The notes under the pieces were generated by a model that was given only the letters and a program-made list of their open reading frames with translations, ran no database searches and was not told where the DNA came from. From a virus: a stretch of DNA of 64,000 nt. The translations under genes and the position numbers were made by a program. Below are positions 28,172 through 62,098 of this stretch, piece by piece; position 1 is the stretch's first letter, and every line of letters starts with the position of its first letter. Location: positions 2,406 through 66,405 of IMG/VR virus record IMGVR_UViG_3300046169_000081, one strand, 5' to 3'.

Positions 28172-29810
28172 TAAACCAACAACCATGGAATATAATAGAT
28201 ACTACTGGCTGAATGAAGACAGCCGCACATTTTTATCAAGAGGGTATATATCAGAAAGCCCTGAACAAAGAATCAAAGACATTGCTATAAAGGCAGAGAA
28301 ATATTTGAATATAAAAGGCTTTGCTGAAAAGTTTGAGGATTATATGGCAAGAGGATTTTACTCTTTGTCTACTCCTGTATGGATTAACTTTGGTAAACAA
28401 AAAGGTTTACCTATCAGCTGTTATGGATCTAATATAGATGATAACTTAGATAGTATACTTAACGCAGGACGTGAGATAGGTATGATGTCTAAGTATGGTG
28501 GTGGTACTAGTGCTTACTTGGGTAATATTAGACCTAGAGGTAGCGTAATATCAACCGGGGGTCATGCTGATGGACCAATTCATTATGCTAGAATGTATGA
28601 CACTGTAGTGGATGTATGCAAACAATCAGAAGCTAGACGTGGAGCTTGTGCAGTATATTTACCAGTTGAGCATGCTGACATAGATGAGTTCTTAGATATT
28701 GGTACTGAGGGTAATCCAATACAAAACTTGCAGTATGGTGTTACAGTAAGTGATGCCTGGATGCAAGAAATGAAAGATGGGGATAGAAAGAAACGTAAGA
28801 TATGGGCAAAAATAATTCAGCGTAGATCTGAGTTTGGCTTTCCTTATATTATGTTTAAGGATAACACCAATAATAATACACCTTACAAAGATATGGGAAT
28901 GGAGATCACAGCTTCAAATTTATGCTCAGAGATCCAGCTTCCTACAGATAGTTATAATTCTTTTGTATGCTGCCTAGGTTCTATAAATGTATTACACTGG
29001 GATGAAATAAAAGAGACAGATGCTATACAGACATATGTATATTTTCTTAATGCTGTAATGGATGAGTTTATCATAAAAGCTGAAACTATGCCCGGTATGA
29101 AGAGAGCATATAACTTTGCTAGTAAACACAGAGCCATTGGTTTAGGAGTTCTTGGATATCATTCTTTATTTCAGTCTAAGTTAATTGAGTTTGACTCAAT
29201 ACAAGCTAAAGGGTTAAATAGTGAAATATTCAGAACAATAAAAGATAGAAGTGAAATAGCATCAAGAAAACTGCACACTGACTATGGATATAAGTGTTTA
29301 AGAGAAGGATATGCCAACACTACACTAATGGCCATTGCTCCTACTAAATCTAGTAGTTTTATCCACGGTGCAGTGTCTATGGGAATAGAGCCTATTAAGT
29401 CTAACTACTTTGTAAAAGATCTTGCTAAGTCTAAGACTGTATATAAAAACCCTTATTTAGAGAGTGAGCTTGAAAAGTATGGATTAAATACAGATAAAAC
29501 TTGGAAGTCTATTCTAAGTAAAGATGGTAGTGTTCAACACTTAGACTTTCCTACTAAAGCTGTGTTTAAATCTTTTGTTGAGATCTCACCTAAAGAGATT
29601 GTTTTGCAAGCAGCTCAAAGACAAAAATATATTGATCAGTCACAGTCACTTAATTTAATGATTGATCCATCTGTGTCTGCTAAGCATATTAACCAATTAT
29701 ATTTATATGCTTGGGAAGAAGGGGTAAAGACTTTATACTATCAATTTAGTAAAAGTAGTGCTCAAGACTTTGCTCGTAATATATTAGAATGCGCTAGTTG
29801 TGAGGGGTAG
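28158..29810 (+). CDS. nrdA: ribonucleotide reductase class I alpha subunit, no ATP cone (likely start M at 28185)
   Basis: LPISC, SKYGGG, RRGACA, SNLCSEI, IAPTKSSS, KTLYY, C-terminal CASCEG. Confidence 0.95.
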   Translation: MTYFNKPTTMEYNRYYWLNEDSRTFLSRGYISESPEQRIKDIAIKAEKYLNIKGFAEKFEDYMARGFYSLSTPVWINFGKQKGLPISCYGSNIDDNLDSILNAGREIGMMSKYGGGTSAYLGNIRPRGSVISTGGHADGPIHYARMYDTVVDVCKQSEARRGACAVYLPVEHADIDEFLDIGTEGNPIQNLQYGVTVSDAWMQEMKDGDRKKRKIWAKIIQRRSEFGFPYIMFKDNTNNNTPYKDMGMEITASNLCSEIQLPTDSYNSFVCCLGSINVLHWDEIKETDAIQTYVYFLNAVMDEFIIKAETMPGMKRAYNFASKHRAIGLGVLGYHSLFQSKLIEFDSIQAKGLNSEIFRTIKDRSEIASRKLHTDYGYKCLREGYANTTLMAIAPTKSSSFIHGAVSMGIEPIKSNYFVKDLAKSKTVYKNPYLESELEKYGLNTDKTWKSILSKDGSVQHLDFPTKAVFKSFVEISPKEIVLQAAQRQKYIDQSQSLNLMIDPSVSAKHINQLYLYAWEEGVKTLYYQFSKSSAQDFARNILECASCEG

Positions 29811-42400: not shown

Positions 42401-45400
42401 TAAAAATACTGAGTTAAGCAATTTTTGTCTTTCACTTATTTTATTAAGTGCTGTAACTCTTTTAAGATTAAATGTAGGTTTCTGATGTGCATTAACCATG
42501 TCACCATTTACATTGGTAAATACTGATAATCCAATTGACTCATCAAACACAGCATTATTGATTGCCATTTTTCTAATCTTAGATGTAGCACCATATTCAG
42601 AATATAGATCTACATCTTTTACTATCAAGTCATTTATAAAATAAAGATCTTCTGCAGTAACTGGATCTGATGTTTCATTGAAGTCTAATAACAATTGTTG
42701 GTTAGATGATCCTGCTCCTCTAGATCTAATAATACTATACTTTATGTATAAAGGACTAAGTTTTATACCTGTACTATCAAAAAGATTTTGAGCTATACTC
42801 ACAGACAAATTTTGCAAAGCAGCATCTTCAATAGTTTCTGTTGCTAACAATTGAGCTCTAAAAGCTTTTATGGAATCTGTAGCTTCTTTCTTTTTTCTTT
42901 TATCAAGTAACCACTGTTGACTTAATGTTAGATATGCTTGACCCCAAAGATCTATTTGTGTGTGTATATCATCTCTTTCTGCAGCAGAATATGTTATTAC
43001 ATTTCCTGATTCATCCATCTGTTGGAATAACCACTCTACTCTAAAGTTTGTAAATGCTTTTGTTATCTGATTAAATAATAAAGGATCTTTGATATTTTCG
43101 GGTAAAGTCATTTGACTAACATCAACACCATAAGGTATACCTATGTCCTCAAACATTTTTTTAACAACACCTTTAGTATTAGGATTGTCTTGAGAAAATA
43201 AATACATAGCCTGTAGAATCTCTAAAGGATCTTCTTTTGATTTTACAGATTTTAATATTCCATTATAGACACTATATACATCTATAGGTACAATCAAAGG
43301 TTCTCCTTCTGTAAGTTCTACATTACCAAAAATATCAGTTTGCTCTTTAGTTATAGTTGCTAAGTAACTTCTAATATATGTAGGCAGTGAACTAAAACCA
43401 CCATTCATGTAAGCTTCTTTACCAAACTGTGTTACATTTCTAAGACCATCTTGATTTTCATAATCATCTTCTGATAACTCTTGCTGTTGTTTCTGAACAT
43501 CTATAATGTCAAGAACATCCATAACAGCCTTATAAATAGGTTGGTTTTTTACATCAGCAAATAAATCAAAGTTTATTGCTTGATATATCTGAACTAACTT
43601 ATCATATCTTAATTGATTAGTTGGTGTATCTGTTGCTAAAAGTTTTTCATTTGCAGGATTGTTAGGATCATACAAATCAGAAAAATCATTAAGCAAGTCT
43701 TCTATTATCTCTTCGTTTGTTTTTTGTTTACCCTCATCATTGAGATAAAACCTTGGATCTTTTCTTCTATTAATATAGTTGGCAGCAATAGTTAAAGCCA
43801 AATTGTTAGCAATATTAGAATCTAAGTATAATCTTCCTTTAGATCCATTTACTTGTACAGCTTCATATGGCAGCAATGCATTTGCAATTGTAATAGCCGG
43901 CCCTGCCTGCATAGTAAAGTCATTTGCTACAACAGTAGCATTTGCATATTTACCAGCATCAATATTTTCAAACAAAGTTTGTAACTCTGTTTTAGAGTAT
44001 GATTCAAACACAGCTTTAATCCATTCAATTATTCTATTAAAGAATGATTTTATTGAGCTGTCTGTTTTAGTATCTTTAGGATTAGCTTTAAATAACTCAA
44101 ACTGATCCGCCATATACTCTTCATAATACTCTCTCTCAAGTTGTTCTTGAGTCATATTTGTATAAGTATCCGCAGAGTTTCTAAATTTAATTAACTCTTT
44201 TTGAAGACTCTTACCTTCTTTTCTTAATTGTGCTCTCTTTTCTTTCTTAGCAATCGCAAGCAAACGTTTTTGCTGTTCAGGTGAAAGTAGCATTCTGTAT
44301 ACACCGTGGAAAGCTTCATGATATCTAAAAGGATTTGTTGCACCTGTATATATCGTACCACCCGCAGTTAAACCACCAGCTAAACCATTTAAGTCTAAAA
44401 CAAATGCACCAACTCTTTTACCACCTGCTTTAAGATTATTACCAAGTTGTTTTATATCAGCTACAGTAATAAACTCAGGTAAGTTATCCTGTGCCCACAG
44501 TAAAAAGTCATCAAGACTTTCTAAATCAGATACTGAATATCCTGCAGGTAAAACTTTATTCCCTGGTTTTAAAAGTCTCTCTCTTTCTTGTAATAAACTT
44601 TGATACTCTTTACTTTCTTTAAGAGCTTTTCTTTTATTGTTCCAACCTACCTCTGAAGTTATTTTTTCTTCAAGTTCTTTAATCTTGCCATTTAGTACAT
44701 CAATAGGTGTTGCAGCTAGTGCAGTCAAATCAATTGACTTGTTTTTGCTCTTCAGCCATACTTGACCCTTTAGGTATTCTTCTATCTGTGGTGCAATGGA
44801 TCCTTCTTGTCTAATTGCTTGCTCTCTTTCTGTAAGAGGTACACCAGCCATAATTTTCTGTGCAATAGAATCAATCAATTGCTTCTGTACTGTTGTTGGA
44901 TCATTTACAAATCCTTCCCAAACAACATCAGATACTTCACCTGCACGTGCTTTATCAGCTTCAGCAGCAACCTCATCTCTTGCATCAACTTGATCCTCTG
45001 CTAGTTTACTTAGTATATCAGCTTCTTGATTATCTATCTTAGATTTCTGACCTTGGCTTATAGATTTTTTTGGTTCTACATTATCTGGTCTATTAATATT
45101 TGCAGCTTTATCTATAGCAGCTTGAACCATTCCAGATTCAGCATTCACAAACAAATAACCACCTCTTCTAATTTGAGGTGATAGTTTTGTAGATAAACTT
45201 TCTAACATCTCATTAATAGATGCATTTAATGGCACACTGGTAGTAAAATTGTTTATTGTAACATTTACATCTTTAGCCACACTTTGTTCTGTAAGTTTAG
45301 CTAATAATTGCTCTAGTTTAGAAATATTAGAACCTTCTTTATTTAAATCTGCTTCATATAAATATTGATATGCACCAACACGTCCTACACCATTCTGATA

Positions 45401-48400
45401 AATTTCTCCTCTAATTTTACCCCATGGATCTACTGTAATATTCAAATTAAATCCCTTGGGCATATTAACCCTAAACTTTTTATTTGTATCATTATTAAAT
45501 ACAGTATTGTAATCAGCATTTATATAATCACCAACTTTTTTACCAGGATGTTTACTAATGTTTTCAGAAGTAACTAAATTCTCCTGTCTAGTTTTTTCTG
45601 CTTGAGTTTTCATATCAAGCATTACACTTTCTAATACATCTTTAGATAATCCTGTAGTTTTTGCTGTAGCTAGAGTATAAGTACCATTAGGTTGTCTAAC
45701 TACGTATTGATATCTTTCTGTGTAGTTAAAGGTATCAGGCCCCATCATCTTATCAAATAAACTAATGCTTTGACCACCAATAGGTAACTTTAATCCTTCT
45801 TCAACTTCTGCTACTAATGCTGCTTTTTGATCTGGGTCTGTTATGTTAGAATATGTTTCATAGTCCATCATTGATCCATCCGCTGCTCTTGTAATATCAA
45901 ATATTAATACATCACCTCCATCATTAGCTGCATAAGGAAGTTCAGATAGTGGTATTAAAGGATTATTACCACTATAATCCGGATATCCTGCAAAGTTTCT
46001 AATTTGAATGCCTGCAGGTAGTTGACCAATTTTAATAACGTTTTGATCTTTTTTAATTAAAGCTTCAACCTCATTTAACAATAAATCTTGTTTTGCAAAA
46101 TTAATTTTTGCTTCTTCTAAAGTTTGCTCAATTGTTTTTCCTTTTTGTGGAACAAATACATTACTTGCAAAATCAACAGACATTTGTGCAGGAAGAACTT
46201 GATTACCTTTATCATCTCTAAATATAATTGACTCAGCAGGTATATAACCTATTTCTCCATTTTCTGGTATAGTTGGTAGTTTTGCATCTGTAAGTTTTTG
46301 ATTTAAATTATTTCTTAAAACAGGATCAGCAATAGCAACTTGTAATGTCACCCTTTGATTCTTTCTTCTTATATATGGGTTACTAATACCATTAATTATA
46401 AAAGGATCCTCATATAATTTATCATTTGGTAAAATATTAATTATAACACCATTTAATAATTGATCTTCTGTTAAAGATGCACCAATAAGTGCAAGTTGTT
46501 TTTCACCAATTTCTCTATCTAATTCTTTTGGTGAATAGATTACTACAGGATCATCTACTGTTACTTTAGGGGCATCAGCAGATAATACTGTAAAACTAAT
46601 TTTTTCTATCTCAAACCTTTTAGAAAAGTCTAATTCACTTTCATAAATAGCAGCATCTTTTCTATCATTATAATTATTAGTCCATCTATCTGCAGGTACT
46701 AAAGATACTGTACCTCTAGATGCATGTTTAGGATTACTGTTAATTATAAACTCAGTACCAACGGGATAATCATCTATAGCCACTTTACTAAATACTGATA
46801 TACCTTTACTTAAAGACATACCATCAAATCTAAATGTTGTACCATCTGAATACTCTCTTTCAAGAGTATCAAATGCAACCTTAGCTTCTTCCATAGAACT
46901 AAAAGTAGCACCCAAAGGTCTATTGATTATTTCTAACATTTCATTAGAAAGAGAATTACCGTTTACATCAACAATTTCTACAAACTCTCCTTGAGCAGAT
47001 GATCTTCTTACACCTCTAAATGCTACACCATCCATACCACTAATAGGTTGAACGGCAGCTTGACCCGTATTAGATCTAGAAAAAATACTCATGTTTAATC
47101 CATAGTCATTTACTATAGATTGTACTAAAGGATTTTCAATTGCTTCTCTACTATCTAAAAACTTCTGAAAACCAATTTCACTTTCTATTTCTTGTTGTGT
47201 AGGTTTAACCTTAACCGCTGTTTCTTGACCATTTTGAACCACAATAGTATCATATCCTGTAGCCCAAATTCTTTTTAATGCGGATAAAGCAGCAACAATA
47301 TTAGTTGCATTTGTTGTCTTTCTCCATTGTTCTGGAGTTAATATAGCATCTTTTGTGTTAGCTCTATATTTACGGTATTCTTTTTCTAAAATAGACTTTA
47401 AAGTTTTTGAAGTATTTATATCTCCAATATTTATTTGAATACCTGCATCTTCTAATTTATCTTCAACATCTAAAATAGTTTCTGCTTGAACAGATTGTGA
47501 AGATTCTACTTCTGCTTGTGCTTTATCTTGTTGATCTAGTTGAACAAATGCGGCAAGCAAACCACCCACCTCTTTGATTAATTTAGCATCTTGTTCTAAT
47601 CTTGGATTAAGTAATTTACCATCAATAAAAAATGCACCTTTATTACCCTGTAGTAGTAAAGCAAGTAAATCTTTTTCTGTTATTTCACCAGCAAAATATT
47701 TCCTAACTAAGGTTGGCTCTATAGCAACCTCCTTTTCATATAACAAATTAATTAGCTCATTCTTTTTTTGTGTATCTAAATATCTAGCAGCTGCATCTCT
47801 TACTACCGCATCTTTATTTTTATACAACCATTCATAGTATTGCTTTGATCTATCAGCAATTTCTTGTTGCTTAGTGGGGTTAGTCATAAAATCAATAGAC
47901 CTAGAAAATGATGCTGCATCAGATCTAAGTGCGCTATGATCTACAATTTTTGCAACTGCATCATCAACTAAATCTTGATTAACAAAGTCAGAATTATTTT
48001 CCGCAAGAACTTGTATATAGTTTTTAAATGCAGATCTAACTTTATTTACTGTACCTTGTCTTCTGCTTATGTTTCCTTTTTTAGTTATATTTTTTGGGTC
48101 ATTAATAACATCAGCATACTTCTGTAAAGCTTTCCTTTTATTTTTCTTTTTGTTGATTACTGTTTTAGATTCTCCTGCTTCCTCTGCAGCTTTAATCTCA
48201 GCATCTAGCAAAGTTAACTCTTGGTCTATACTTTCTTTGTTATATAGTATTCTTATATCAGAACTTGCTTGATTAGCAAACAAAGGTTCTGTTTCTAATG
48301 ATGTCTCTATAGCTGCTTGCCTTTCTACAGCATTTTTATAAGCTTCATTAGTAAACATATAAAGCATCTTATTATGTTTATATGCCTGTTCTTCTCTTTG

Positions 48401-50710
48401 TAAATTTAAATACTCTGGACTACCAGCAGTTAAATTCTCGTAGTTAAAAGTTTTATCAAATACTTTAGGTAATTTATTAGCAAAAGTCTCACCATATTCA
48501 TCTATCAGATTAATTTGTTTCTGAATACGTTTTCTTACCTTCTCAGGTTTTCCAAACTCTTTTGGATTAAAAGCTTCTGCAAGATCTTTATCTGACATTT
48601 TACTAAACTCAAGATAACTTTCTCTTGCAAATTTTATAGAGCCTCTTTCATATGCTGAATACAAATTAAAAAATTGTGCAGCAAACTGTGCATTATCAAA
48701 ATCATATTTATCATTATCTGCAAACGCAATGCTTTGCTCAGAAAAATTTTGTTTTTGTAATATAGCTTGAAATTGAGCTGGTGAAAGCACAGATTCTAAA
48801 TCTTGTTTCATCATTTCACCACGCTCATTAATTTGTTTTACAATATCATCTAATACTTGTTCTCTTCTTTGACTATATTCTTTAGCATAGTTTGATTGTG
48901 TACCATCACCAAATTTTGTGTTTGCTTTTGCATATGCACTTCTACCAATAGCAGGTAAACCCTGAAACAAAACTTGCTGATAAGGACCAGCTAAACCACC
49001 CATTAAAAATCCTGAAAGAAAAACACTCATGCCTTCTTTTGATGCAAGATTAGAAGTTGATTGACCAACATAACCGGCAAGAGTTGACGGGCCACCGCTT
49101 AAAGGATCTCTCAATAATGAGCTGTAATATCCAACTGTTGCAGCAGAAATTGCTTCTTGAGATACTTCTTGTACACCTTCTGCTAAATTAGCAGCACCAT
49201 ATCTTAACATCTGAGTACCCATAACTTTAGCAGCTCCTTTGTAACCGGCTCTATTAAAGGCTAATTTAAGTTCTTGTGGTATTCTCTTTATTAAATATTT
49301 ACTTCCCTTTACTGCTGTAAATGCATCTTTACGTAGGATTCTATTGGAGTTAGTAACTTGCCTTCTCCAACCACCAAATGCATTTTTTAAAACAATTCTG
49401 TTAGAGGCATATATAACAGCAAAGTTTGCCATCTGAGCTTTAAAAGATGCCTCAGCAGCTTTAACCATTATATCCTTGGTCTGTTGTTCTGTTACACCCC
49501 CACCTTGATTTTTATAGTTTGCTTCATTAAAACCATTATTTAAAACTTGGTTATAAACCATACCTGCTTCCATTTTAGATTCAGATAATGATGCATTAAC
49601 CATTCTAAAATCTCTATAGAATGCACCAAATAAATTTGTTGTCTTAGCAAGATTTATTGTATTCTGTGCAGTGGTTTTTGCAGTCTTCCAATTTTTAAGT
49701 GCATATAAAGTTTCTGGTGCTATTGCTCTAAATACAGTATTCATACCTTTACCAAGCTGAGCAGCATTAAAAAGATCTCTTGCTCTTTCTACTTGAGATA
49801 TTTGTTTTACAAAGTCATATGAAGCTTTTGCACCTCTTGTAAAAGATGTACCTTTCATTGTAAAATCAAAAGCCCTTTTTATTCTAGGTATAAATCTTCC
49901 TTGTGCAGCAACAAATGCAGCAAGACTACCACCACCAGTTGGTACAGCTGTAAGAGCAGCTCCGGCTGCTAATATTGCTTCTTCAACGGCAATAGATGCC
50001 ACAATACCTGCTGTATAACCAAAGTTTAAACCAAGGTTGCCAAACCAACCACCAAAACTACCAGATGTACTACCACCAATTCTCATAGCATCTTCCATCT
50101 CTTGTGCAGACTCAAGATCTGGATCTTCCCAATAACTATCACCATCAAAAATATCTGCTAATGATCTATAACTTGATACAAAACCAGTCCCTCCAAGCTT
50201 TAAAAATTGTTCAAAACCTCTTTGAAATCCATCCCAACCAGTCATATTTTTATTGAATACAGCATCCATGTTAGCATAAGGAGCAAAACCTATGTCTGCA
50301 AAAGCATTACTCTCGTACTGTCTATCAAAGTTTATTTGTCTTACATTGCTCCAAATAGGATTTGGAAGTGTTCCTTCATCAGGTGTAAGAGGTTCTTTAA
50401 GACTTTGCTCTAATTGTTCTGCTATAGTTAATTTTTTTTGTGGCTGTGTGCTGGTAGATAAACCAGGAGACAACTTATCCATAAACATATTACCAATAGC
50501 ATTAGGTCCAACCTTATCCATTTCTGTTCTGTACATATCAATTTGCTGCATGTACTTATCATCAATAGGATTTTCTAAAGGAGGCAGGATATCATCTATA
50601 GATTGATAAGGAACAGATGTATCAATAGGATTCATATCAACTGAATCTTGTACAATTCTCTGTTTCAAATCAAAATCTGGACTTGGTAAATTGTTTGTTA
50701 ATTCTGACAT
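36420..50710 (-). CDS. giant virion-packaged RNA polymerase polyprotein (~4,762 aa when two +1 indels near 40371 and 40246 are removed)
   Basis: Catalytic GADFDIDKL (39843-39857) and VRIPSQ as in crAss-like/phi14:2 gp66 RNAP; DAQMY and KKF...IKMS in the upstream ORF; HEAFH zincin (44306-44320); ORFs 40361-50710, 40216-40404 and 36420-40064 join into one frame. Confidence 0.85.
36717..37256 (-). repeat. 27-bp imperfect direct repeats (24/27) flanking a 171-codon domain in the vRNAP gene
   Basis: ttcaaccccactagtttgttgtgttgg (36717-36743) vs tttaacctcactaggttgttgtgttgg (37230-37256); period 513 nt. Confidence 0.8.
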
Positions 50711-54116: not shown

Positions 54117-56936
54117 TTACATACCCATCTTACCCGTATAGAATGGATAAGCAAATGGTTTTATTTCTTTTCCTTTTCTTCCTGTTAATCCATCTGTTCT
54201 TACAGAAGGTGCATTACTAGTTAACCCAGAAGCATTGGGATTACTACCGCTTTCAAAATCATTATAATTTTGACTTTTCTTTTTGCGTGAACCAGTCTGA
54301 CCTGTTAACAAATAATCTACACGGTTTTCTATTTCATCTTCAGGCATATCTGGATATTGTTCTATTAACCTATCTCTTGTTTGAATATACGTATCCATTC
54401 TTTTTTGTTGATCAGTTCTATCATCCGTATCTACTTCAAATGGTTTAGCATACTTTTGAGATTGAACACCACCTGCAGATGGGTCAGCTTTATAGTAATC
54501 TTTAAGCTGATTCATATTAAATGTATTAGCTCTGTTAGTTATAGCTTGATTATATAACTCATTTGTTTTTTGCTTATCCCAATTTTCAAAATCAATATAT
54601 CTTTGTAAGGCTGTAACCGTACTGTCATACTCATCTTTATACGCTTGTGCATTTGCAACACCAGTTCTTAAATTAAGCTGTGCTTGTGGCAATGCAACAC
54701 TATTCATAATTTTTATATTATTAGTGTTTACTGATCCTACATCTTTAGCAAGTTGACCAACTGCTTTACCAAATAAGTTTGAACCTGCAACTTTACCTTT
54801 ACCAAAAGCTCTAAGATTTTGAGCCATGGTATTTAATGCTGCATTAGTCATATTTGCTCTACCAGTCCAATCATCTAATACGTAATCAATTTCTTCATTA
54901 GGTACTTTAGGAATGTTTGGTAAAAACAATGGATTCTCTAAAGAAGCTTGAGTTGCTAAATTATTAAGATCTTGCCACCACCATTCTGGTTTCTCTTGCT
55001 CTGGCATCTCTAAAGTATTAGGATCTCTTGGTTGTAATGTATCTTTAACTTCTTCTTCTAAAATTTCTTGCTCCTTTGTTCTAATATAACTTCTAGCTTT
55101 ATTAAATGTATCTAAACCTAGTTTACCATCTATACCACTACCCGGTCTATCACCAGGAAATAAAACTCTTGGTTCCGTTTCATTCTTTTGAGCAAACTCA
55201 TTTTCAACTTCTTGCATTGCATTTTGCATAGCAGTCCACTGTTTCTTATAAGCTTTAGCTTGTGCATCAACAGGATTACTACCGCTCCATTTTCCTTGTG
55301 GCATATTATAATCAAAACCAGGAACTTTAGATGCAGCATCTCCCCATCTTAGCATAAAATCTTTTTCTGCTATATCAGTACTTAAGTCTGCTCCAAATGA
55401 GTTTGAAGCCTCACCCATAGAAGATTGAATTTTTGGTCTGTTTTGCCCAGAGTAAATACCTTTTCTAATTCTAGCATTATCGGGAAAACCTTCATAAACT
55501 TCTATTAACTCATTTGTTATTTCGTCTGTAACAGGAATACTACCCTGTCCTTGAACATCAATTGATTGTTGTTTATATTCTGTAAAATCTTCAAACAAAC
55601 TTGGGCCTGCTGGCTCAATTAATTTGTAATTTGTTTTACCGCTTACTTTATCCCTGGATTCAACTAATTGATATCCTTGCATAATTTTTTCTGTAAACAA
55701 ATCTCTTTTAGGATGTCCTATAGGAAGAGGATTACTTTCTTCTGCTTGAGCTCTTGTAATTTTACCATCAGTATCTTCAGTAGTTGTTTGTTGAGTTTCT
55801 TCTTGTCTACTTTGTTTTTTATATTCTGCAGGAAAAAATGCCCCTAACTCTGAATCATATACGTAAGCTCCTCTATCTTCTTTTTTAACATCTGGTAAAC
55901 CAATTCTATCATAATACTCATTATATCCTTCACCATCTTGAGGAGAATCATAACCTACTGTTTGCACTGTTACTCCTCCATTATCACTATCCTTTTGTTC
56001 TGTACCATCTTGAGCCTTTGCTAGTTCGCCTCCTTTTTTAAGTGTAGCTGTAAGTTCTTGATCTGCAATTGCTACATCAGCTTCATTGGGTGCTCCTTGT
56101 GAATCTGGTAATGCTAATTCTCTAGATGAATCTTGAACTGCACCTGCATTAGGATTTTCAATGTTTTGCATCATAGCTTGTAAACGCAGAATTTGATCTT
56201 GTTGTTCTGGTGGCAATGATGCAATAAAATTAAGCTCAGCTTGTTGTCTTGATTGTTCTTCAATTTGTGCGGTAAAATCAATTGGATCTATACCCTGTTC
56301 TTGCAAATATGGATATGCAGCTAAAGGCACACCGTCTTCAAAACCTTTCTTAAGTTCTTGTCCAAAAGCAAGCTTTGATAAACTTCTCATATTTTTACTT
56401 AACATCATATCTGCACTTCTTGTAGATATTTCATCAGCATACTGATCATTTATTTGTGCTAAGTATTCATTTAGTTTAAATTTTTTAGATACCTGAGCTG
56501 GAGTTTTTTTCTTTCTGGATTCTATACCAAACTCTGCTAACTCAGATCTATCCATCTTCATTGCATTAGTATCAGAAAAAATAAATGACTGTTCTGGTAA
56601 ATACATAGGAACTCCACCTTGAGAGTGTCTTGGTCCTGTTATATCATACAAACCAAACTGACCATTATTATTTAAATCAGTTAAAACAGTTTCTCCACCT
56701 TCAGCTTCTATATTGGCATCTTCTCTTGGCACACTAGATAAACTATATCTTACAGATGTATCTTTATCATCATTAAAATTTGTATCTCCATAGAATTCTT
56801 CTGGAGTTGTAACCAAACCATACTCTGCTTGATCACCAGTAACAAGGCCACCATCTCTTTTGATAGTTTTCTTTTTTACTTTACCATCAACTAATTCAAA
56901 ACCTTTTGGTAATTTATTTATCTTAACTTTTGCCAT
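54117..56936 (-). CDS. virion cargo protein (939 aa) with crAss-type N-terminal domain
   Basis: ANIEAEGGETV...GPRHSQGGVP...FIFSD motif; GG linkers KRDGG and LKKGGELAKAQDG. Confidence 0.7.
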   Translation of the reverse strand: MAKVKINKLPKGFELVDGKVKKKTIKRDGGLVTGDQAEYGLVTTPEEFYGDTNFNDDKDTSVRYSLSSVPREDANIEAEGGETVLTDLNNNGQFGLYDITGPRHSQGGVPMYLPEQSFIFSDTNAMKMDRSELAEFGIESRKKKTPAQVSKKFKLNEYLAQINDQYADEISTRSADMMLSKNMRSLSKLAFGQELKKGFEDGVPLAAYPYLQEQGIDPIDFTAQIEEQSRQQAELNFIASLPPEQQDQILRLQAMMQNIENPNAGAVQDSSRELALPDSQGAPNEADVAIADQELTATLKKGGELAKAQDGTEQKDSDNGGVTVQTVGYDSPQDGEGYNEYYDRIGLPDVKKEDRGAYVYDSELGAFFPAEYKKQSRQEETQQTTTEDTDGKITRAQAEESNPLPIGHPKRDLFTEKIMQGYQLVESRDKVSGKTNYKLIEPAGPSLFEDFTEYKQQSIDVQGQGSIPVTDEITNELIEVYEGFPDNARIRKGIYSGQNRPKIQSSMGEASNSFGADLSTDIAEKDFMLRWGDAASKVPGFDYNMPQGKWSGSNPVDAQAKAYKKQWTAMQNAMQEVENEFAQKNETEPRVLFPGDRPGSGIDGKLGLDTFNKARSYIRTKEQEILEEEVKDTLQPRDPNTLEMPEQEKPEWWWQDLNNLATQASLENPLFLPNIPKVPNEEIDYVLDDWTGRANMTNAALNTMAQNLRAFGKGKVAGSNLFGKAVGQLAKDVGSVNTNNIKIMNSVALPQAQLNLRTGVANAQAYKDEYDSTVTALQRYIDFENWDKQKTNELYNQAITNRANTFNMNQLKDYYKADPSAGGVQSQKYAKPFEVDTDDRTDQQKRMDTYIQTRDRLIEQYPDMPEDEIENRVDYLLTGQTGSRKKKSQNYNDFESGSNPNASGLTSNAPSVRTDGLTGRKGKEIKPFAYPFYTGKMGM

Positions 56937-56938: not shown

Positions 56939-58789
56939 TTATAATATTTCTATGTCAGCTCCAGCTGCAATTAGTTGTGCTATCATATCTTGTGATAATT
57001 CTAATACTTCACCACCTTGTTGCATTTCATCTTTATGCAGGTAACCCATATCAGCCATTCTTTCATGATCAGCTTTTACATTAGCTTTATAACCTTTATT
57101 TGTTTTAGGATCAAACATCATATGAGGTTTAAACTCTCCTCCTTCTTTTGCAGTTCCAGAAAAACTATAAGGACTGCCTGCAAAGTTCATGTAGTATCCT
57201 GCTACTCTATCTGCTTCACTACCCAATTGTCCAGATAAAGCATCATAAGTACCTCTAGTTCTTGGGCCTGACATTTTTGTTGCATACTTATAATCAGCGC
57301 CAGATCTTTCTTCAAGTTGATCTTGAGCTTCTAAATAAGTTTTTTGATCTGCAATTCTATTATATAAACCAGCAAAATCAGATGCTGCTCCTAATATAGA
57401 AGCACCAGCTCTTACATATGGATTATCACCCAATCTATCTATTGTACCAGATATTGGGTTGTTAACATTAATTTCTGGTTGAAAGTTAACATCATTATAC
57501 ATGTCTTCTAGATTAGGTCTATCAACAGTTCCATAAGCGGGTACACCTGTACCCTCTCCACCATCTATATCCATAACATCCGGTATGCCATCACCATCTG
57601 CATCAGGATTAAAACCCGGTGTTTCAAAACCCATTTGTGCACTATAAACAGATCCACCAAACATTTTATTATATATACTGTCAAACATACTTCTTGCAGT
57701 ATCCATATTTGTAATACTTGGATTCTTTTGTAACCATTGTTCAAACGTTGGTTTTGCTACTGTCAAGTCTGATACTTGTTTATCAGCTTTTGCTTTATTT
57801 TCTTGAGTTTGATATTGTAATTCTTGTGCTTCTGCAGTTGCCCAATCTTTAAATTTATTGATATTTTCTTCTGATCTTACATCACTAAAATCAAGATCTA
57901 CATCATAATATTTATATTTGTCAGCTTTATACTGATCTACTTTATCTCCAAAGTTGCTAAACTCACCTTTAACATCTCCAATTACAGTTCCCACAGTATT
58001 AACGATATCAAATAATGGATTTACTGCTGGAGGTGGCATCATTGGTAATACTGCATATTGTGGATCTGGAAAATAATATTGATCCTGTCTTTGCAAATTT
58101 TTATAAAATGCATCATTTGCTATTTCACTTTCATCTGGAATAAAGACACCGTTTATTATTTCACCTTTTGGTTGTCCACCACTTTGAAAATTGCTAATAG
58201 CTCTTTTTACATAACCCATAGCATTATCTACATCACCTCCAAATTCTTTATTCCAACCAGCTGCATTTTTTGCAAAGTTTGCCATTTTAACAACATCAGT
58301 TGTATATCTATCTTTATTTGACATTACTTTATTTGCCGCGTCAGAAACAGTCATGCCTCTTTTCTTTGCCCATGCTGTAAACTTACCTTTGTTCTCAGGT
58401 TTAATTTCAATACCAGACTTAGCCATACCCATCATTTGATTTTCTTGAGCGGCTTCTTGTTCTTCTTGTTTAATTATATCTTCATTTCTTGAAAGTAACT
58501 CTGGATTTGAATTTACTTCTTCTGGAGTAGATGGTTGAGTGCTTCTTTCTATTTGTTCAAATAAAGACATAATATCTTCTTCAGCCATACCAACCATCAT
58601 AAGCGCTTGAGCAATAACTTGTTGATCTACTTGATTTTGAACAAGTGCTGCTACAACCTCTTGCGGGTTTTGACCTTCTTGTACAGATGAAGCAATAGCT
58701 TGAGATATCTCCATAACTTGTGGATCAACTTGCTGTTGAGCCTCACCTCCCGTTTGTTTTAAACTTATTTTGTTTAGTTCCACACTCAT
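56939..58789 (-). CDS. virion cargo protein (616 aa), GG-punctuated modules
   Basis: IEIKPENKGKFTAWA...MANFAKNAAGW module, DADGDGIPDVMDID Ca-binding-like loop, repeated xxGG linkers. Confidence 0.65.
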   Translation of the reverse strand: MSVELNKISLKQTGGEAQQQVDPQVMEISQAIASSVQEGQNPQEVVAALVQNQVDQQVIAQALMMVGMAEEDIMSLFEQIERSTQPSTPEEVNSNPELLSRNEDIIKQEEQEAAQENQMMGMAKSGIEIKPENKGKFTAWAKKRGMTVSDAANKVMSNKDRYTTDVVKMANFAKNAAGWNKEFGGDVDNAMGYVKRAISNFQSGGQPKGEIINGVFIPDESEIANDAFYKNLQRQDQYYFPDPQYAVLPMMPPPAVNPLFDIVNTVGTVIGDVKGEFSNFGDKVDQYKADKYKYYDVDLDFSDVRSEENINKFKDWATAEAQELQYQTQENKAKADKQVSDLTVAKPTFEQWLQKNPSITNMDTARSMFDSIYNKMFGGSVYSAQMGFETPGFNPDADGDGIPDVMDIDGGEGTGVPAYGTVDRPNLEDMYNDVNFQPEINVNNPISGTIDRLGDNPYVRAGASILGAASDFAGLYNRIADQKTYLEAQDQLEERSGADYKYATKMSGPRTRGTYDALSGQLGSEADRVAGYYMNFAGSPYSFSGTAKEGGEFKPHMMFDPKTNKGYKANVKADHERMADMGYLHKDEMQQGGEVLELSQDMIAQLIAAGADIEIL

Positions 58790-58843: not shown

Positions 58844-61800
58844 TTAAGAACTCTTCATTACATAAGTAAGAATATAATTTGGAACTGACATTCCAAGTCC
58901 TTTTGCATCTGTATAATGTACTCTGTTTAATTTATCATAAATACTTTTACTTGTATCATCTGTTGCACCACCCATAACATACTTTTTATATATATCATAA
59001 AGGGTTAATTCACCACCACCTTCAAAAGAACTATATCCACCCTCAATACCTTCTTTTTCTGCTGCATTAAAACTTTCTAAAAAAGAATTTCTATCTCCTT
59101 GGCTTTCAACATTTTTATGTCCTTTTAACCAAAGATCTTCTAGTTTCATTTTGCCTTCTGCATAATCAGCTAACTTTGCATCTGACTCAATTAAGTTTGC
59201 AAAGAACAAAGTATATTGATCTTGAGCATTTAATTCATCTGCTGACTTAGCATTTAAAATATCTGGGTTAGGCGTAAAACCTTTTGATTTAGCAATGTTT
59301 GTATATCTCTTTTGTGCAGTTTTTAATGATGGTGGTTCAAATTGAAATAAACCTCTACCCGGACCGCCAAGATACTGTTTAGCTTTAGGATCCATTCTTG
59401 CCCAAGGACCTGATTCATGAAAAGCTATTGTATCAGCAGCTTTACCCCATAACTCTTTAGTACCTCCCCTAGTATCAACAACATAATCTAATATATTATT
59501 AAAGTTTAATGTCTTAGCTTTTTGAAATTCAGGTTTTGGTTTAGCAAGATTTTCTATAAACTCTTGTTTTGTAAATCCATCTTTAGGTGGTATTACAACG
59601 CTATCATTAACAGGAGGATTCATTACAGCTTCTGGATTTTGTTGTCTATAATATTCCCAACTTTCTTTATCAAAAGGTGCTTGTCCGCCTTCTTGTAATT
59701 TATCTAATGGTACTTTTCTATAAGCAAAGAAAGGATCTTTTTTATAAAAATTAAAATTTTCAACATTTCTCATTTTTGGTTTCATGATGCCAATATCCCC
59801 AACCCATTTATTCATTGGTGTTGGATCTACCATCATATTTTGCATATAAGCCGGTTGAAAGTATGAATCCATACCTTGATATTTGATTGGATCTGATGGA
59901 TCAAACTCAATCAAATAATCAGCACTACCTGATCTACCTCTAGTATTACGTTTACCATCTAAACCAGATTTAGACTTTTTGTTATAATCAAAAAATGTTT
60001 CGCCCTTTTTAAAAAAAGGCCCTGGATATCTTTTACTAAGTTGGAACATTCCCGGTTGCAAATTTTGAAGTTCAGCAAGTTTTTCTGCAAAAACTCGCGG
60101 ACTTATTTCTTCACCCATTTCTCTTACAGTACGAGTTGCTTGTGCATCTCTAATTGCTGGTTCTCCAACTTGTCTTAACCATTTTTCATTTTCTTTATTA
60201 AACTGTAAAAACTCCGGAAGCTTTGAGTTTATATTATTATATGCCCAAGGGTTATATTTATATAAATCATTTTGAATAAACTCATCTATATAATTAGCAC
60301 CCTTTTTAATAGCAGGTTTTAATTTTTTTAAAAAAGCACCTAGCTGAGCTTTATCCAAATCACTAATATCTCCACCATACTTTTTATAAAAATCAGATAA
60401 ATTTTTTAATACTTCATCAGCATTACCTATAAAAGCAGAGGCACCTGGAATCTTGCCGGTTTCTCTTATTTGTTTTACAAGTGGTGGTGGTAAAACATAC
60501 TCACTAGAGATTGGCATATTACCCATACCACCACTCATGTTTAATGCTCGTTCAGTTGCTGTTCCTGTATATAAATTAAAGTTTTTAGCATCTGCTGGAT
60601 CAAAATACGCTGTTATCAATCTTCTAGGTGCTGCTGGCTCAAGAACTTCAATAAAATCAGCTTGACTCATAGCATCTTTTGTTTTATCAATATAAAATTT
60701 ACTTAACTTATCATTAAACCAATTTCCATCTTCATAATTACTAAATGATGTATTACTTACATTAGCATCCTCAACTCTGTTTAATCTTACAGCATCTTTT
60801 TTTGGTATTTTTTTTATTGACCCATCTCCGGTAACTACTTCAACTAACTCATCAAGTTTATCTAACGGTGCATTCTTAGCTACATTTTTTCCTTTTGATA
60901 ACCATGCAGGTACAATTGGTATTGCGCCTAATGCATCAAAACCAGCATCAAGATATTCTCCCTCCTCTGCATTACGTTTTGCAGATGCAGCATATTTAGC
61001 CCAAGCAAAAGGATTAATTGCATCAATCACTCCATCAAATGCATTTCTATTTTCTGCATTAATTGGTATGCTATCTGGTAAATCTTGATTTCTAGCTGAA
61101 TAGCCAAAAGCAGTCATAGGACTTGCTAAATAGTCTAATGCTTTCTCATACCATGCTGGTTCTTCATATTGAGATATGGTTGGTTGTTCTTTACCGCTTT
61201 GAGCAATTGGTACTCCACCATTTTTATATTTTGGATTAATTTGTATATCTCTAGATCTACTATCACCAAACATTCTCATAAGTTCCCTCATTCTGTTTTC
61301 GTCTCCTTCTACTTTCATTTCTTTTGACATCCAAGAAGGATTGGGGTTTGCCATGTTTGCATCTGGTGTTATAATAGCCTCATATGATGTAGGTATTCTT
61401 GGTACATTTATCTGACTAGTTTCTATTGAATTAGAAACAGTAAGAGGTGTTAATTTAGCAGAATTTAGTTTAGTAGGTGTTGGTATTTTATTTCTTACCT
61501 CCTTCATAAACCAATCTACAGGATAAGTATAGTTGTTTTTTCCAAAACTAAAAGAAACATACTCATCATCAACATCTTTTATTTCAAGGTCTTTAAAATC
61601 CTTGTCTTGATAAGATCTTTCAAATTTTAGTTTTTCTTTTATTTTATCTACAGTGATATCTGGTACTTTTACTTTTCCTCCATCTTGAGCAATAGGTAAA
61701 GCTTCTCCTCCACATTTATGACAAGTTGTTAGATCATTACCTCCATCTGCAGCTTTCCATTTCCAACCGCAACTATTACATTTCATAGTTTTAGTTAAAA

Positions 61801-62098
61801 GACCACCTCCTCTTTTAGCCATTGGAACCTCAACAACATAATCAGCATCTCCGTAGTTTATATTTTTTTCTCCGGGTTTCATATCTTTAACAATACCATT
61901 GTTTCCATATCCTCTAACTGGAAAGTCCACACCTTCCATAGTAATATCTGCTGATGGTATAATATTAAAAGGATTATTTACATCAGGACTATCTGACTTA
62001 TATCCATCTATAGAAAACATGCCAGTAATGTATGTAAACTGTTCGTTTGGTCCACCGGGTAATCCTATTGATTCTATATGTTTAAAGTTCTTTTTCAT
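58844..62098 (-). CDS. modular virion cargo protein (1084 aa): Zn ribbon, two ART-like domains, lysozyme/transglycosylase-like domain
   Basis: CNSC...CHKC; RLNRVE...GNWFND...SEYVLP; LRQVG...GPFFKKG; IAFHESG...GRGLFQFE; modules separated by GG linkers. Confidence 0.6.
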   Translation of the reverse strand: MKKNFKHIESIGLPGGPNEQFTYITGMFSIDGYKSDSPDVNNPFNIIPSADITMEGVDFPVRGYGNNGIVKDMKPGEKNINYGDADYVVEVPMAKRGGGLLTKTMKCNSCGWKWKAADGGNDLTTCHKCGGEALPIAQDGGKVKVPDITVDKIKEKLKFERSYQDKDFKDLEIKDVDDEYVSFSFGKNNYTYPVDWFMKEVRNKIPTPTKLNSAKLTPLTVSNSIETSQINVPRIPTSYEAIITPDANMANPNPSWMSKEMKVEGDENRMRELMRMFGDSRSRDIQINPKYKNGGVPIAQSGKEQPTISQYEEPAWYEKALDYLASPMTAFGYSARNQDLPDSIPINAENRNAFDGVIDAINPFAWAKYAASAKRNAEEGEYLDAGFDALGAIPIVPAWLSKGKNVAKNAPLDKLDELVEVVTGDGSIKKIPKKDAVRLNRVEDANVSNTSFSNYEDGNWFNDKLSKFYIDKTKDAMSQADFIEVLEPAAPRRLITAYFDPADAKNFNLYTGTATERALNMSGGMGNMPISSEYVLPPPLVKQIRETGKIPGASAFIGNADEVLKNLSDFYKKYGGDISDLDKAQLGAFLKKLKPAIKKGANYIDEFIQNDLYKYNPWAYNNINSKLPEFLQFNKENEKWLRQVGEPAIRDAQATRTVREMGEEISPRVFAEKLAELQNLQPGMFQLSKRYPGPFFKKGETFFDYNKKSKSGLDGKRNTRGRSGSADYLIEFDPSDPIKYQGMDSYFQPAYMQNMMVDPTPMNKWVGDIGIMKPKMRNVENFNFYKKDPFFAYRKVPLDKLQEGGQAPFDKESWEYYRQQNPEAVMNPPVNDSVVIPPKDGFTKQEFIENLAKPKPEFQKAKTLNFNNILDYVVDTRGGTKELWGKAADTIAFHESGPWARMDPKAKQYLGGPGRGLFQFEPPSLKTAQKRYTNIAKSKGFTPNPDILNAKSADELNAQDQYTLFFANLIESDAKLADYAEGKMKLEDLWLKGHKNVESQGDRNSFLESFNAAEKEGIEGGYSSFEGGGELTLYDIYKKYVMGGATDDTSKSIYDKLNRVHYTDAKGLGMSVPNYILTYVMKSS

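Follow-up and report, generated by a model that had tools for sequence, protein, structure and literature searches.

CrAss-like phages are abundant. The podovirus T7 ejects its internal core protein gp16, which carries a lytic transglycosylase at its N-terminus. Polymorphic toxins with pre-toxin domains were reportedly described by Zhang et al. in 2012. Bayfield et al. showed in 2023 that gp45 of PhicrAss001 is cargo protein C1, that parts of it sit in the tail barrel and others on the portal, and that its segments lie in both tail and capsid (PMC10172136). The gene order of this phage is R1/R2-gp44-gp45-gp46-giant proteins, and in the available text of the article channel formation is the sole proposal for the role of gp45. 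Iyer, Burroughs, Anand, de Souza and Aravind published in 2017 an account of polyvalent proteins, encoded by phages as well as by conjugative elements, among which, as far as the available part of the article goes, ADP-ribosyltransferases (ARTs) are the commonest protein-modifying domain and lysozyme domains are frequent; the same source lists T4 Alt as an ART packaged in the virion and injected with the DNA (PMC5512222).

The gene analysed here lies in a window of 64,000 nucleotides, the whole stretch of DNA under study, and its product is called P0001. Of the cargo-position virion proteins of an uncultured crAss-like phage we consider it, with a probability of roughly 0.6, to be the first: a polyvalent protein in which conserved ends frame exchangeable modules joined by linkers.

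Genomic position and block structure

The reading frame proposed in the first-pass annotation held when its translation was checked (Table 1), and all the motifs that the annotation had listed, namely CxxC..CxxC, DAGFDALGAIPIVP, GNWF, SEYVLP, LRQVG, GPFFKKG, YLIEF, HESG and GRGLFQF, are present in it. P0001 matches 1441 representative clusters (50% identity) at E ≤ 1e-3 and divides into at least eight blocks, including a zinc ribbon, a predicted ART-fold domain and a lysozyme-like block.

The annotation had placed the gene in a block of ejected cargo, a context that the relatives bear out. In L003, a relative of 116.9 kb, CrAss_Ring_2 (E 7.9e-19), CrAss_Ring_1 (E 5.6e-7) and a virion structural protein of 1680 aa precede the homologue, and all six large ORFs of the block (four complete ones, the one cut upstream and one of 3449 aa) are matched there by homologues in unchanged order. 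In a second relative, L005, this is true of five of the six, the locus ending before the counterpart of the 3449-aa ORF. The cargo-block homologues in both loci are just 33–36% identical. Judged by this synteny, the gene occupies the position of the PhicrAss001 cargo protein gp45. The two proteins match different PHROGs and share no sequence similarity (best BLASTP E 0.8), and the packaging of P0001 in the virion, which we consider probable, therefore rests on gene position and a weak PHROG hit. Residues 29-98 match phrog_36695, a 'virion structural protein', at E 1.1e-6; we infer that aa 1-91 are a virion-anchoring or targeting part and aa 1032-1084 a virion-anchoring part.

The CxxC..CxxC ribbon is kept in 68 of 77 homologous copies and gives a weak Pfam match to HypA (E 0.16). 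The common adaptor is predicted to be helical at low confidence (pLDDT <50), and its hydropathy is weak, with a maximum mean Kyte-Doolittle value of 1.15 over 19 residues (aa 383-401). Its end, which had been described as a pre-toxin-like hydrophobic hairpin, acts as a junction: 55 endpoints of BLAST HSPs lie near aa 409, and 119 copies of the adaptor are followed by at least 25 different modules. Modules of the aa 413-571 type and of the aa 588-797 type are alternative tips after this adaptor (clusters of 25 and 19 among the 119).

Table 1. Features of P0001 and of the neighbouring cargo-block ORFs, with positions in the window
Feature	Residues (aa)	Position	Strand	Basis or remarks
Whole ORF, P0001	1-1084	58844..62098	(-)	1084 aa, ATG start; putative polyvalent cargo-position protein
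N-terminal block	1-91	61826..62098	(-)	leader M..KKSIGLPGGPNE; in 188/245 retrieved relatives
Linker 1, PMAKRGG	92-98	61805..61825	(-)	107 internal HSP endpoints within ±5 aa
Zinc-ribbon-like module	99-133	61700..61804	(-)	CNSC...CHKC at aa 107-129
Linker 2, LPIAQDGG	134-141	61676..61699	(-)	DNA repeat TTGAGCAATAGGTA at 61685; HSP endpoints
Rare cassette, fold not assigned	142-290	61229..61675	(-)	in 6/245 relatives; lacking in P0002
Linker 3, YKNGGVPIAQSG	291-302	61193..61228	(-)	DNA repeat TTGAGCAATTGGTA at 61199; 110 HSP endpoints
Common adaptor	303-412	60863..61192	(-)	ends in hydrophobic LDAGFDALGAIPIVPAWLS; in 116/245 relatives
Folded alpha/beta domain, possibly ART-like	413-571	60386..60862	(-)	pLDDT about 80-90
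Linker 4, KKYGGDISDLDKAQLG	572-587	60338..60385	(-)	motif match, HSP endpoints
Predicted ADP-ribosyltransferase-fold domain	588-797	59708..60337	(-)	predicted structure, structural neighbours, conservation
Linker 5, LDKLQEGG	798-805	59684..59707	(-)	motif match, HSP endpoints
Spacer block, short	806-861	59516..59683	(-)	LysM domain at same place in many relatives
Lysozyme/SLT-like block	862-1024	59027..59515	(-)	motif, conservation, sub-cut-off profile matches
Linker 6, FEGGGEL	1025-1031	59006..59026	(-)	119 HSP endpoints
C-terminal block	1032-1084	58847..59005	(-)	in 170/245 relatives
Upstream ORF, cut by contig end		62098..63999	(-)	homologous to C-terminus of 1680-/2171-aa virion structural proteins of L003/L005
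Next cargo-block ORF, 616 aa		56939..58789	(-)	motifs SLKQTGGE at about aa 12, FQSGG 202, SAQMG 384, EMQQGGE 590
Third cargo-block ORF, 939 aa		54117..56936	(-)	KKGGELAKAQDGTEQ, AQDG core from aa 308; GG near aa 29

The linker peptide and the exchange of cassettes

All six linkers claimed in the first-pass annotation were found, at agreeing positions; the family consensus of the linker is about KK-x-GG-x-LPKAQ-x-GGE. In 168 non-redundant family proteins the pattern P.AQ.G occurs 220 times versus 2.7 times in composition shuffles, an 81-fold excess, and GG.{1,3}P.AQ occurs 116 times versus 0.8; GG alone is a mere 1.3-fold over the shuffles. There are 512 internal linker sites, with at least one site in 156 of the 168 proteins, and another 96 sites stand at a conserved N-terminal position, so that some of the excess is inherited and not wholly independent recurrence. 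The recurrence as such is above chance. Linker codons match background codon usage (19 sites), and selection therefore acts on the peptide. The two 14-nucleotide repeats noted earlier both encode PIAQ; their 13/14 identity is real, but its source is this shared peptide together with biased codon use, and they flank a cassette that has no counterpart in P0002.

The two cargo ORFs that follow contain the motif as well, both here and in their homologues in L003 and L005; it is common to three consecutive cargo proteins. Its copies in the neighbouring proteins are found some 10-30 aa in from the N-termini and, at one C-terminus, some 25 aa before the end, and Q-x-GG variants occur near the termini.

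The idea that blocks are delimited and swapped at the linkers agrees with alignment endpoints, with permuted block orders and with an indel in the closest relative. Linker windows (linker ±5 aa) make up 11.2% of the protein and hold 467 of its 859 internal BLAST HSP endpoints. Family-wide, 15,845 of 47,169 endpoints (33.6%) fall in the motif-adjacent 6.2% of residues, an enrichment of about 5-fold, as compared with 1.9-9.9% in shifted-mask controls. The closest relative, P0002, is 95% identical over aa 287-1084 and lacks aa 141-295, the gap lying exactly between two PIAQxG linkers; between VPMAQIG and KMKRGG it has, in addition, a module of about 78 aa. Orthologues are thus not collinear without variation at the linkers; P0002 differs exactly there. 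Block occupancy spans about 7 to about 109 in the first 119 relatives, and in P0046 and P0049-52 the blocks stand in a different order. As judged from these alignments, cassettes are gained, lost and reordered at a conserved linker peptide.

It is extremely improbable that the linkers mark nothing and are glycine-rich patches due to chance, or an artefact of alignment. Such a view could appeal to the 1.3-fold figure for GG alone and to the one inherited N-terminal site per protein that feeds the motif count, but it is refuted by the shuffles, by the HSP endpoints with their shifted masks and by the exact cassette indel between two linkers in P0002, and the 512 internal sites speak against it as well.

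ART-like and lysozyme-like blocks

Two blocks had been proposed to be ART-like. The proposal stands for aa 588-797, where the predicted fold and the conserved R642 and E731 agree with it, while for aa 413-571 the structural matches are weak and tied. The model of aa 588-797 has a pLDDT of 62 overall and of 70-88 in the core. Its neighbours in the VIA-wide search are Tpt1 (Z 5.9, rmsd 4.2, 94 aligned), CC0527 (5.5), Scabin (5.0), DarT1 (4.6) and TreX and TreTu (4.5), and of the 50 rows at least 42 are, by title or by known family, proteins of an ART or NAD-utilising fold. In the pdb_via search, a Z of 2.8 or more is reached by ART-type chains alone (CC0527 6.0, TreTu 4.7 at 17% identity, TccC3 3.9, CNFy 2.8). 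No VIA Z-score reaches 8, and the tool itself calls this range common; the ART call therefore depends on how consistent the hits are and not on the score. The top BFVD row is a phage protein with an 'ART-PolyVal-like domain' (E 0.15, prob 0.77), and Tox-ART-HYD1 and Arr-ms lead in the ESM Atlas (0.80). Successive predicted strands carry R642 (WLRQV), P694 and F696 (PFFK) and E731 (YLIEF); in 37 copies of the domain R642, P694 and F696 are conserved throughout and E731 in 35, and D651, E663, R777 and N781 are likewise invariant or nearly so. In its predicted structure, aa 588-797 has the ART fold.

The other domain, aa 413-571, is invariant in all 39 copies at R441, E443, D444, N446, E456, G458, N459, W460, R493, S522, G524 and E533. 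Its best Z is 3.5, to TreX; 20 of its 24 VIA-wide rows are of ART type (3 of uncertain family) and 4 are ribosomal, and in a second look the ART rows were tied with ribosomal eS26 and tissue factor. On these models it may be ART-like. The Foldseek comparison that the first-pass annotation had suggested yielded no PDB match at E ≤ 1e-3 for the model of either block. P0001 has no Pfam hit to ART-PolyVal (PF18760) at E ≤ 1, and hhalign of the blocks against the family's own ART-PolyVal modules gave probabilities of at most 1.3%, with a positive control at 100%.

For the block proposed to be lysozyme-like, the ES...GLFQ motif and its conservation are borne out, but matches stay below the Pfam cut-off, and a PDB sequence-profile search of aa 862-1024 returned no lysozyme and no match. 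H894, E895 and G916 are kept in all 71 copies, Q919 in 70 and S896 in 67, and F918 and F920 are conserved. Over 26 columns the block aligns at 58% identity to the ES...GLgQ of the family's SLT (PF01464) modules. Phage_lysozyme2 (PF18013) matches it at E 0.01-0.039 (14.6-16.4 bits, cut-off 28.2), three of ten pieces match Phage_lysozyme2 or SLT at E 0.01-0.1, and phrog_3108 matches at E 1.4e-4; hhalign of aa 862-1027 against the family's SLT modules found no confident relation (3.4%). The block bears a faint likeness to lysozymes, at motif level only.

Delivery, linker processing and comparison with known systems

We propose that P0001 would be packaged and would leave the virion either before the DNA or together with it, its conserved N- and C-terminal blocks holding it in the particle beforehand. 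A wall-active module would help to breach peptidoglycan, as suggested by the LysM, SLT, YkuD and PG_binding modules that relatives carry, and the ART-fold module or modules would modify a host target, using NAD+. In our preferred reading, although we hold it to be somewhat less likely than not, the linker would be a sequence-specific processing site for the proteolytic release of modules and also the joint for cassette exchange. The recurrence of a sequence-specific site between modules, seen in motif counts and HSP endpoints, is one mark of a processed virion polyprotein. Five protease families (S78, S77, ClpP, C39 and MPTase-PolyVal) were searched for and found in none of four near-complete relatives, the S77 control matching nowhere, and the available text of PMC10172136 contains neither 'cleav' nor 'proteoly'. 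A wider proposal, which we regard as somewhat unlikely, is that in a very large and uncultured clade of crAss-like phages the motif would serve as a dedicated 'cargo code', read by an unrecognised protease or a portal/tail docking site, with P0001 as a true virion polyprotein from which ART-fold effectors and wall-active enzymes would be set free in the host, and with the motif also driving exchange.

The chain might instead stay intact and tethered like gp45, with the linkers as flexible but sequence-constrained hinges or short docking motifs for the unfolding of the domains and their threading, domain by domain, through portal and tail, a possibility that we hold to be real if doubtful. Cassette exchange at the linkers would then be a by-product. 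Segments of gp45 are resolved in tail and capsid with intervening peptides detected, and the available text leaves proteolysis unmentioned (PMC10172136). The protease search points the same way, as do the low pLDDT of linkers and adjoining regions in the models of both ART-like blocks and a motif shared by three consecutive cargo proteins, as expected of a common docking or translocation signal. However, L-P-K-A-Q-x-G-G-E is conserved beyond the needs of flexibility, the near-terminal copies in the neighbouring cargo proteins resemble removable targeting peptides, and P0001 lacks homology to gp45.

It is also conceivable, but in our view unlikely, that P0001 is mainly a cell-wall-breaching ejection protein, concerned with peptidoglycan binding, cleavage and channel formation by analogy with T7 gp16, and that its ART-fold domain or domains are non-catalytic binding or structural parts instead of enzymes of host takeover. 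The modules of the 120 relatives listed are indeed mostly wall-directed (LysM 54, PG_binding_1 29, YkuD 21 and SLT 16 by hand count), as a direct scan of six proteins confirmed; it is well established that NAD+ is not available in the periplasm, and a shared fold does not show function. Against this stand the near-invariant R642, D651, E663, E731, R777 and N781, as expected for an active site, the place of both ART-like module types as alternative tips after one adaptor, as in polymorphic toxins, and the occurrence of ART-PolyVal in 4 of the 120 relatives listed, two of which scored below the Pfam cut-off when rescanned directly.

Together, the data suggest for one large clade a first cargo protein that is a polymorphic carrier of enzymes. 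It combines modules that bind or cut the cell wall with ART-fold domains and a large variety of tips, and its cassettes are put together at a defined peptide joint. The proteolytic processing of crAss-type cargo and the host molecules modified by ART-fold modules are now directly testable, and so is the possible use of the linker to predict where modules begin and end in thousands of phage proteins that are still uncharacterised.

Like gp45, P0001 is encoded after ring and giant tail protein genes, and the genes that come next encode, in both cases, a protein of about 600 aa and giant RNAP-related proteins; the two are of a similar size class (842 aa for gp45), and both have a hydrophobic segment in the N-terminal half, a weak one in P0001. 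Enzymatic modules and a conserved linker are found in P0001, whereas none are reported for gp45 in the available text of PMC10172136. With polymorphic toxins the protein shares a constant adaptor with a hydrophobic end that is followed by many alternative tips, and the closest structures of its ART-fold tips include the Rhs toxins TreX and TreTu. Unlike in those toxins, its variable modules are internal and not C-terminal, no immunity gene is evident, and delivery would be by the phage virion. An SLT-type wall-cleaving module in an ejected protein recalls T7 gp16, the assignment in P0001 being at motif level.

The likeness to T4 Alt, which is one of description and not of sequence relation, lies in the ART fold, in conserved residues of the Arg...Glu type and in probable virion carriage; Alt belongs to the R-S-E Alt/VIP2 clade and has a single enzyme (PMC5512222, available part), whereas P0001 is multi-modular, and the Alt target, RNA polymerase, is not transferable to it. 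The polyvalent proteins remain the closest parallel. As described in the available part of PMC5512222, they too join several unrelated effector-type domains in one large phage chain of variable architecture and are predicted to be carried in the particle and to reach the host on invasion, as P0001 probably is and does; its gene is likewise associated with virion genes. The ART-PolyVal site is H-Y-D in that source, whereas aa 588-797 conserves Arg and Glu instead, and unlike the polyvalent proteins described there, the family showed no MPTase in four near-complete relatives. The conserved motif between modules, the constant blocks at both ends of the chain and the cargo position in a crAss-like genome go beyond the description in the available text, in which neither 'linker' nor 'crAss' occurs. 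P0001 is a fresh variant of the known polyvalent protein theme.

A mosaic protein at the cargo position

The 1084-aa product of the cargo ORF is encoded where crAss-like phages have their cargo genes and is built as a mosaic, with constant ends and swappable internal modules that are joined by a motif conserved at the peptide level. The virus contig is 66.4 kb long, of which the window covers 64 kb. The window has phage genes for replication, coding for a DNA polymerase, an ATPase and the two ribonucleotide reductase subunits, and a series of giant minus-strand ORFs, one of them encoding 3449 aa. The replication module looks ordinary and lies on the strand opposite to the cargo block. Searches with the cargo protein (tblastn) and the neighbouring 10-kb gene (megablast) against 50,697 phage records, a set from which near records are possibly absent, gave no match; IMG/VR does contain relatives, of which several are near-complete, with lengths of 107-117 kb. 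In the relative locus L003, the region upstream of the homologue encodes a virion structural protein of 1680 aa as well as proteins matching Pfam CrAss_Ring_2 (E 7.9e-19) and CrAss_Ring_1 (E 5.6e-7), and homologues of the window's cut upstream ORF and of its downstream 616-, 939-, 1111- and 3449-aa ORFs are arranged there as they are in the window. A second locus, L005, has the same set in order minus the 3449-aa ORF, as it stops before that counterpart. This order agrees with that of the crAss-like phage PhicrAss001, described as ring proteins, gp44 muzzle, gp45 cargo protein 1, gp46 cargo protein 2 and giant RNA-polymerase-related proteins (PMC10172136), and the ejected-cargo context proposed in the first-pass annotation is therefore well founded by position. 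The cargo ORF and gp45 have no sequence similarity (best E 0.8).

Judged by position alone, the 3449-aa ORF, which over its N-terminal part shares 30% identity with its positional counterpart in L003, could be a virion RNA-polymerase-type giant cargo protein. Pfam and PHROGs searches matched nothing in it or in the other giant ORFs of the window apart from the 1202-aa ORF, which has an Ig-like Big_9/Cadherin_5 match (aa 588-680, E 8.7e-13) and may encode a fibre or adhesin. The giant ORFs lacking a family match include those of 1214 and 1922 aa; the former is listed with a TTG start, its true start being uncertain, and a gap of about 300 bases separates 40064 from 40361.

Positions of the cargo ORF, its segments and linkers, and other features; occupancy is the number of relatives, among the first 119, with BLAST HSPs mapped onto the segment
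Feature	Position	Strand	Length	Occupancy
Cargo ORF	window 58844..62098	minus	1084 aa	
Linkers 1-6 of cargo ORF	aa 92-98, 134-141, 291-302, 572-587, 798-805, 1025-1031			
Two DNA 14-mers in linkers	window 61685 and 61199			
Cargo ORF segment	aa 1-97			about 109
Cargo ORF segment	aa 100-140			35-57
Cargo ORF segment	aa 145-290			about 7
Cargo ORF segment	aa 296-410			90-99
Cargo ORF segment	aa 460-575			about 41
Cargo ORF segment	aa 585-805			about 37
Cargo ORF segment	aa 805-1020			40-65
Cargo ORF segment	aa 1028-1084			about 108
Basic, helix-prone segment after linker 4	aa 588-636, window ~60190-60337			
Second cargo-block ORF	window 56939-58789	minus	616 aa	
Third cargo-block ORF	window 54117-56936	minus	939 aa	
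Homologues of the 616- and 939-aa ORFs	L003 14688-19408; L005 14009-19593			
Giant ORF	window 40361-50710	minus	3449 aa	
Giant ORF	window 36420-40064	minus	1214 aa	
Giant ORF	window 30642-36410	minus	1922 aa	
Giant ORF with Ig-like match	window 20432-24040	minus	1202 aa	
HNH-endonuclease-family protein, DNA polymerase, both ribonucleotide reductase subunits	window 6848-8011, 13574-15565, 27191-29810	plus		

A word-indexed search with the cargo protein returned 150 relatives, nearly all with partial query coverage, and when searched exhaustively the family proved very large, with 1441 representative clusters at E<=1e-3, of which 627 also reached E<=1e-10. Occupancy along the protein is step-wise, with HSP ends clustering at aa 97, 118, 140, 408, 446, 578, 805 and 1030 and HSP starts at aa 296, 591, 805, 862 and 1023-1028. 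With all 245 relatives included, the internal endpoints number 859, and 467 of them fall within 5 aa of the six linkers, windows that take up 11.2% of the protein; endpoints also concentrate around aa 409, 118 and 859. The enrichment holds family-wide: in 143 non-redundant proteins, 15,845 of 47,169 internal endpoints (33.6%) are within 8 aa of AQ.G or Q.GG, as against 6.2% of residues in such windows and 1.9-9.9% of endpoints with shifted-mask controls.

The first-pass annotation had asked whether relatives gain or lose blocks at the linkers, and they do. The closest relative, P0002 (95% identity over aa 287-1084), is without aa 141-295, the missing part being bounded exactly by two PIAQxG linkers, and has an additional module of about 78 aa between VPMAQIG and KMKRGG. 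The cassette that it lacks is flanked by direct repeats, namely the two DNA strings that are identical at 13 of 14 positions. Block order is also permuted, the aa 585-805 block preceding the aa 395-578 block in P0046 and P0049-52. In some relatives, such as P0083 (at 558-702 and 847-966) and P0033, a block of the aa 296-412 type occurs twice in one protein, each copy after a GG..LP.AQ.G linker.

An ART-fold module and possible wall-directed modules

Direct family searches place little on the cargo ORF, in which all strings quoted in the first-pass annotation were recovered. Pfam gave Phage_lysozyme2 (E 0.039, aa 895-962) and HypA (E 0.16, aa 104-148), and PHROGs gave a 'virion structural protein' family at aa 29-98 (E 1.1e-6) and a family of no known function at aa 891-969. 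The zinc ribbon retains CxxC..CxxC in 68 of 77 homologous copies. Wall-directed families are common among relatives: in a hand count of the precomputed Pfam column over 120 rows, LysM appears in 54, PG_binding_1 in 29, YkuD in 21, SLT in 16 and ART-PolyVal in 4, and direct scans of six relatives confirm these families, the two ART-PolyVal matches among them lying below the cut-off.

The block at aa 862-1024 is plausibly, and somewhat more probably than not, lysozyme-like. H894 and E895 are invariant (71/71), and G916, F918, Q919, F920 and E921 are conserved; this motif aligns with ES...dP.a...GLgQ of the relatives' bona fide SLT modules (26 columns, hhalign probability only 3.4%). Three of 10 pieces match Phage_lysozyme2, all below the cut-off (E 0.01-0.1). 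A PDB sequence-profile search with a clean aa 862-1027 profile matched only ubiquitin (E>=0.14), which we took as spurious, and searches with two other family profiles (A1 and A3) matched the relatives' LysM domain and nothing else.

An ART (ADP-ribosyltransferase) fold is accepted for the predicted structure of aa 585-805. Its AlphaFold2 model, from an alignment of 28 rows, has a mean pLDDT of 62 and a pTM of 0.62, with a core at 70-88 and low confidence in the first 52 or so residues; a basic, helix-prone segment (GAFLKKLKPAIKKG...), likewise of low pLDDT, directly follows linker 4, and similar segments (GALGKxxKPxx) come after linkers in several relatives. Foldseek had no PDB match at E<=1e-3. 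The Foldseek-independent VIA-wide structure search listed Tpt1 (Z 5.9, rmsd 4.2, 94 aligned), CC0527 (5.5), Scabin (5.0), DarT1 (4.6) and TreX and TreTu (both 4.5), followed by heat-labile, pertussis, Plt, TccC3, CARDS and pierisin toxins, PARPs and diphtheria-type toxins. We take at least 42 of the 50 rows to belong to the ART superfamily, the family of the other 8 being uncertain. A repeat comparison against 74 chains listed CC0527 (Z 6.0), TreTu (4.7, 17% identity), TccC3 (3.9) and CNFy (2.8) and no further chain. Since Z values below 8 are singly unremarkable, it is the coherence of the hit list that carries the assignment. In BFVD the top row is a phage 'ART-PolyVal-like domain' protein (E 0.15), and the nearest named ESM Atlas clusters, Tox-ART-HYD1 and Arr-ms (score 0.80), are a lead only. 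The conserved R642 (37/37), P694 and F696 (37/37) and E731 (35/37) lie on successive predicted strands.

For aa 415-584 the evidence for an ART-like fold is no more than suggestive. In the AlphaFold2 model of aa 296-584 (alignment of 35 rows), aa 296-414 are helical at low confidence and aa 415-584 folded at a pLDDT of about 80-90. For the whole model Foldseek likewise had no PDB match at E<=1e-3, and the ESM Atlas had no usable match to aa 411-584. The VIA-wide search placed 24 rows on the folded part, namely 20 of ART type (TreX 3.5, CC0527 3.4, PltA 3.4, ParT 3.3, Arr 2.9 and others, with 3 of the 20 of uncertain family) and 4 ribosomal proteins; in the repeat comparison ART rows stood level with eS26 and tissue factor. 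By hhalign this block (aa 413-578) has no relation to aa 585-805 (probability 0.5%), and aa 141-295, 296-412, 413-578 and 585-805 are unrelated to the family's ART-PolyVal modules in the same comparison (probability at most 1.3%, the positive control reaching 100%). An ART-PolyVal equivalent at aa 141-295, proposed from a P0057 Pfam hit inside a BLAST HSP covering that segment, was rejected on this comparison.

The preceding segment, aa 296-412, behaves like a pre-toxin adaptor to judge from its distribution: relatives hold 119 copies, with at least 25 unrelated modules downstream, the largest groups being the aa 413-571 type (25), a type of no known identity (23) and the aa 588-797 ART-fold type (19). 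It ends with the protein's most hydrophobic stretch (aa 383-401). The usual transmembrane threshold for the 19-residue Kyte-Doolittle mean is about 1.6; the value here is 1.15, and a transmembrane helix was not upheld.

The linker and what it may do

Shuffles of 168 non-redundant proteins contain 2.7 occurrences of P.AQ.G and 1.3 of LP.AQ, where the real sequences have 220 and 135; GG by itself is only 1.3-fold over shuffles. When 490 unique internal sites are combined in a logo, the consensus is roughly K-K-x-G-G-x-L-P-K-A-Q-x-G-G-E. One or more internal sites are present in 156 of the 168 proteins. At 19 sites in the window and the relatives' loci, linker codon use equals the background of these genes; the conserved entity is therefore the peptide, and conservation of the DNA as a recombination signal was rejected. 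The motif also occurs in the next two cargo-block ORFs. The 616-aa ORF has Q.GG or AQ.G at about aa 12, 202, 384 and 590, and the 939-aa ORF carries KKGGELAKAQDGTEQ. Their L003 and L005 homologues, only 33-36% identical, retain such sites (KYGGDLPKAQLG, KYGSELPKAQDGK and APKAQDGGE). Copies in these two ORFs have an LPKAQ-like context, one standing about 10-30 aa from the N-terminus. In all three cargo proteins GG lies about 13-31 residues or less from the N-terminus, and the second has ...MQxGGE about 25 residues ahead of its C-terminus.

We tentatively favour, with a probability of roughly 0.35-0.4, the reading that the linker is a putative sequence-specific processing site that doubles as a recombination joint, because specific residues are conserved, the site is common to three cargo proteins, and copies stand near termini, where they resemble removable targeting peptides. 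Its probability is held down by a search for five protease families in four near-complete relatives, which found none, and by the main text on PhicrAss001, which has nothing pointing to cleavage (PMC10172136). About equally likely is a tethered chain, in which the protein stays intact and is not cut at the linkers. The cargo protein would be packaged and leave the virion with or before the DNA. Its constant ends would hold it in the particle; in PhicrAss001 the N-terminal part of gp45 is in the tail barrel and a C-terminal domain on the portal (PMC10172136). Wall-directed modules might then help to cross peptidoglycan, and ART-fold modules might modify host molecules.

Relation to known packaged proteins

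That phages package proteins in which ART, lysozyme and other domains are put together in varying arrangements is already known (Iyer et al. 2017, PMC5512222); the words 'linker' and 'crAss' do not occur in the main text of that study. Literature searches on crAss cargo with ART, peptidoglycan or linkers brought up nothing relevant, and a further one brought up general crAss papers only. As far as these searches show, what is new is a multi-domain variable protein at the cargo-1 position of a large crAss-like clade, its conserved ends and pre-toxin-like adaptor, a defined linker motif at module borders that recurs in neighbouring cargo proteins, and an Arg/Glu ART-fold module that by profile is unrelated to ART-PolyVal. 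The ART-PolyVal active site is given by Iyer et al. as H-Y-D (PMC5512222), whereas the ART-fold module of the cargo ORF has a conserved Arg and Glu.
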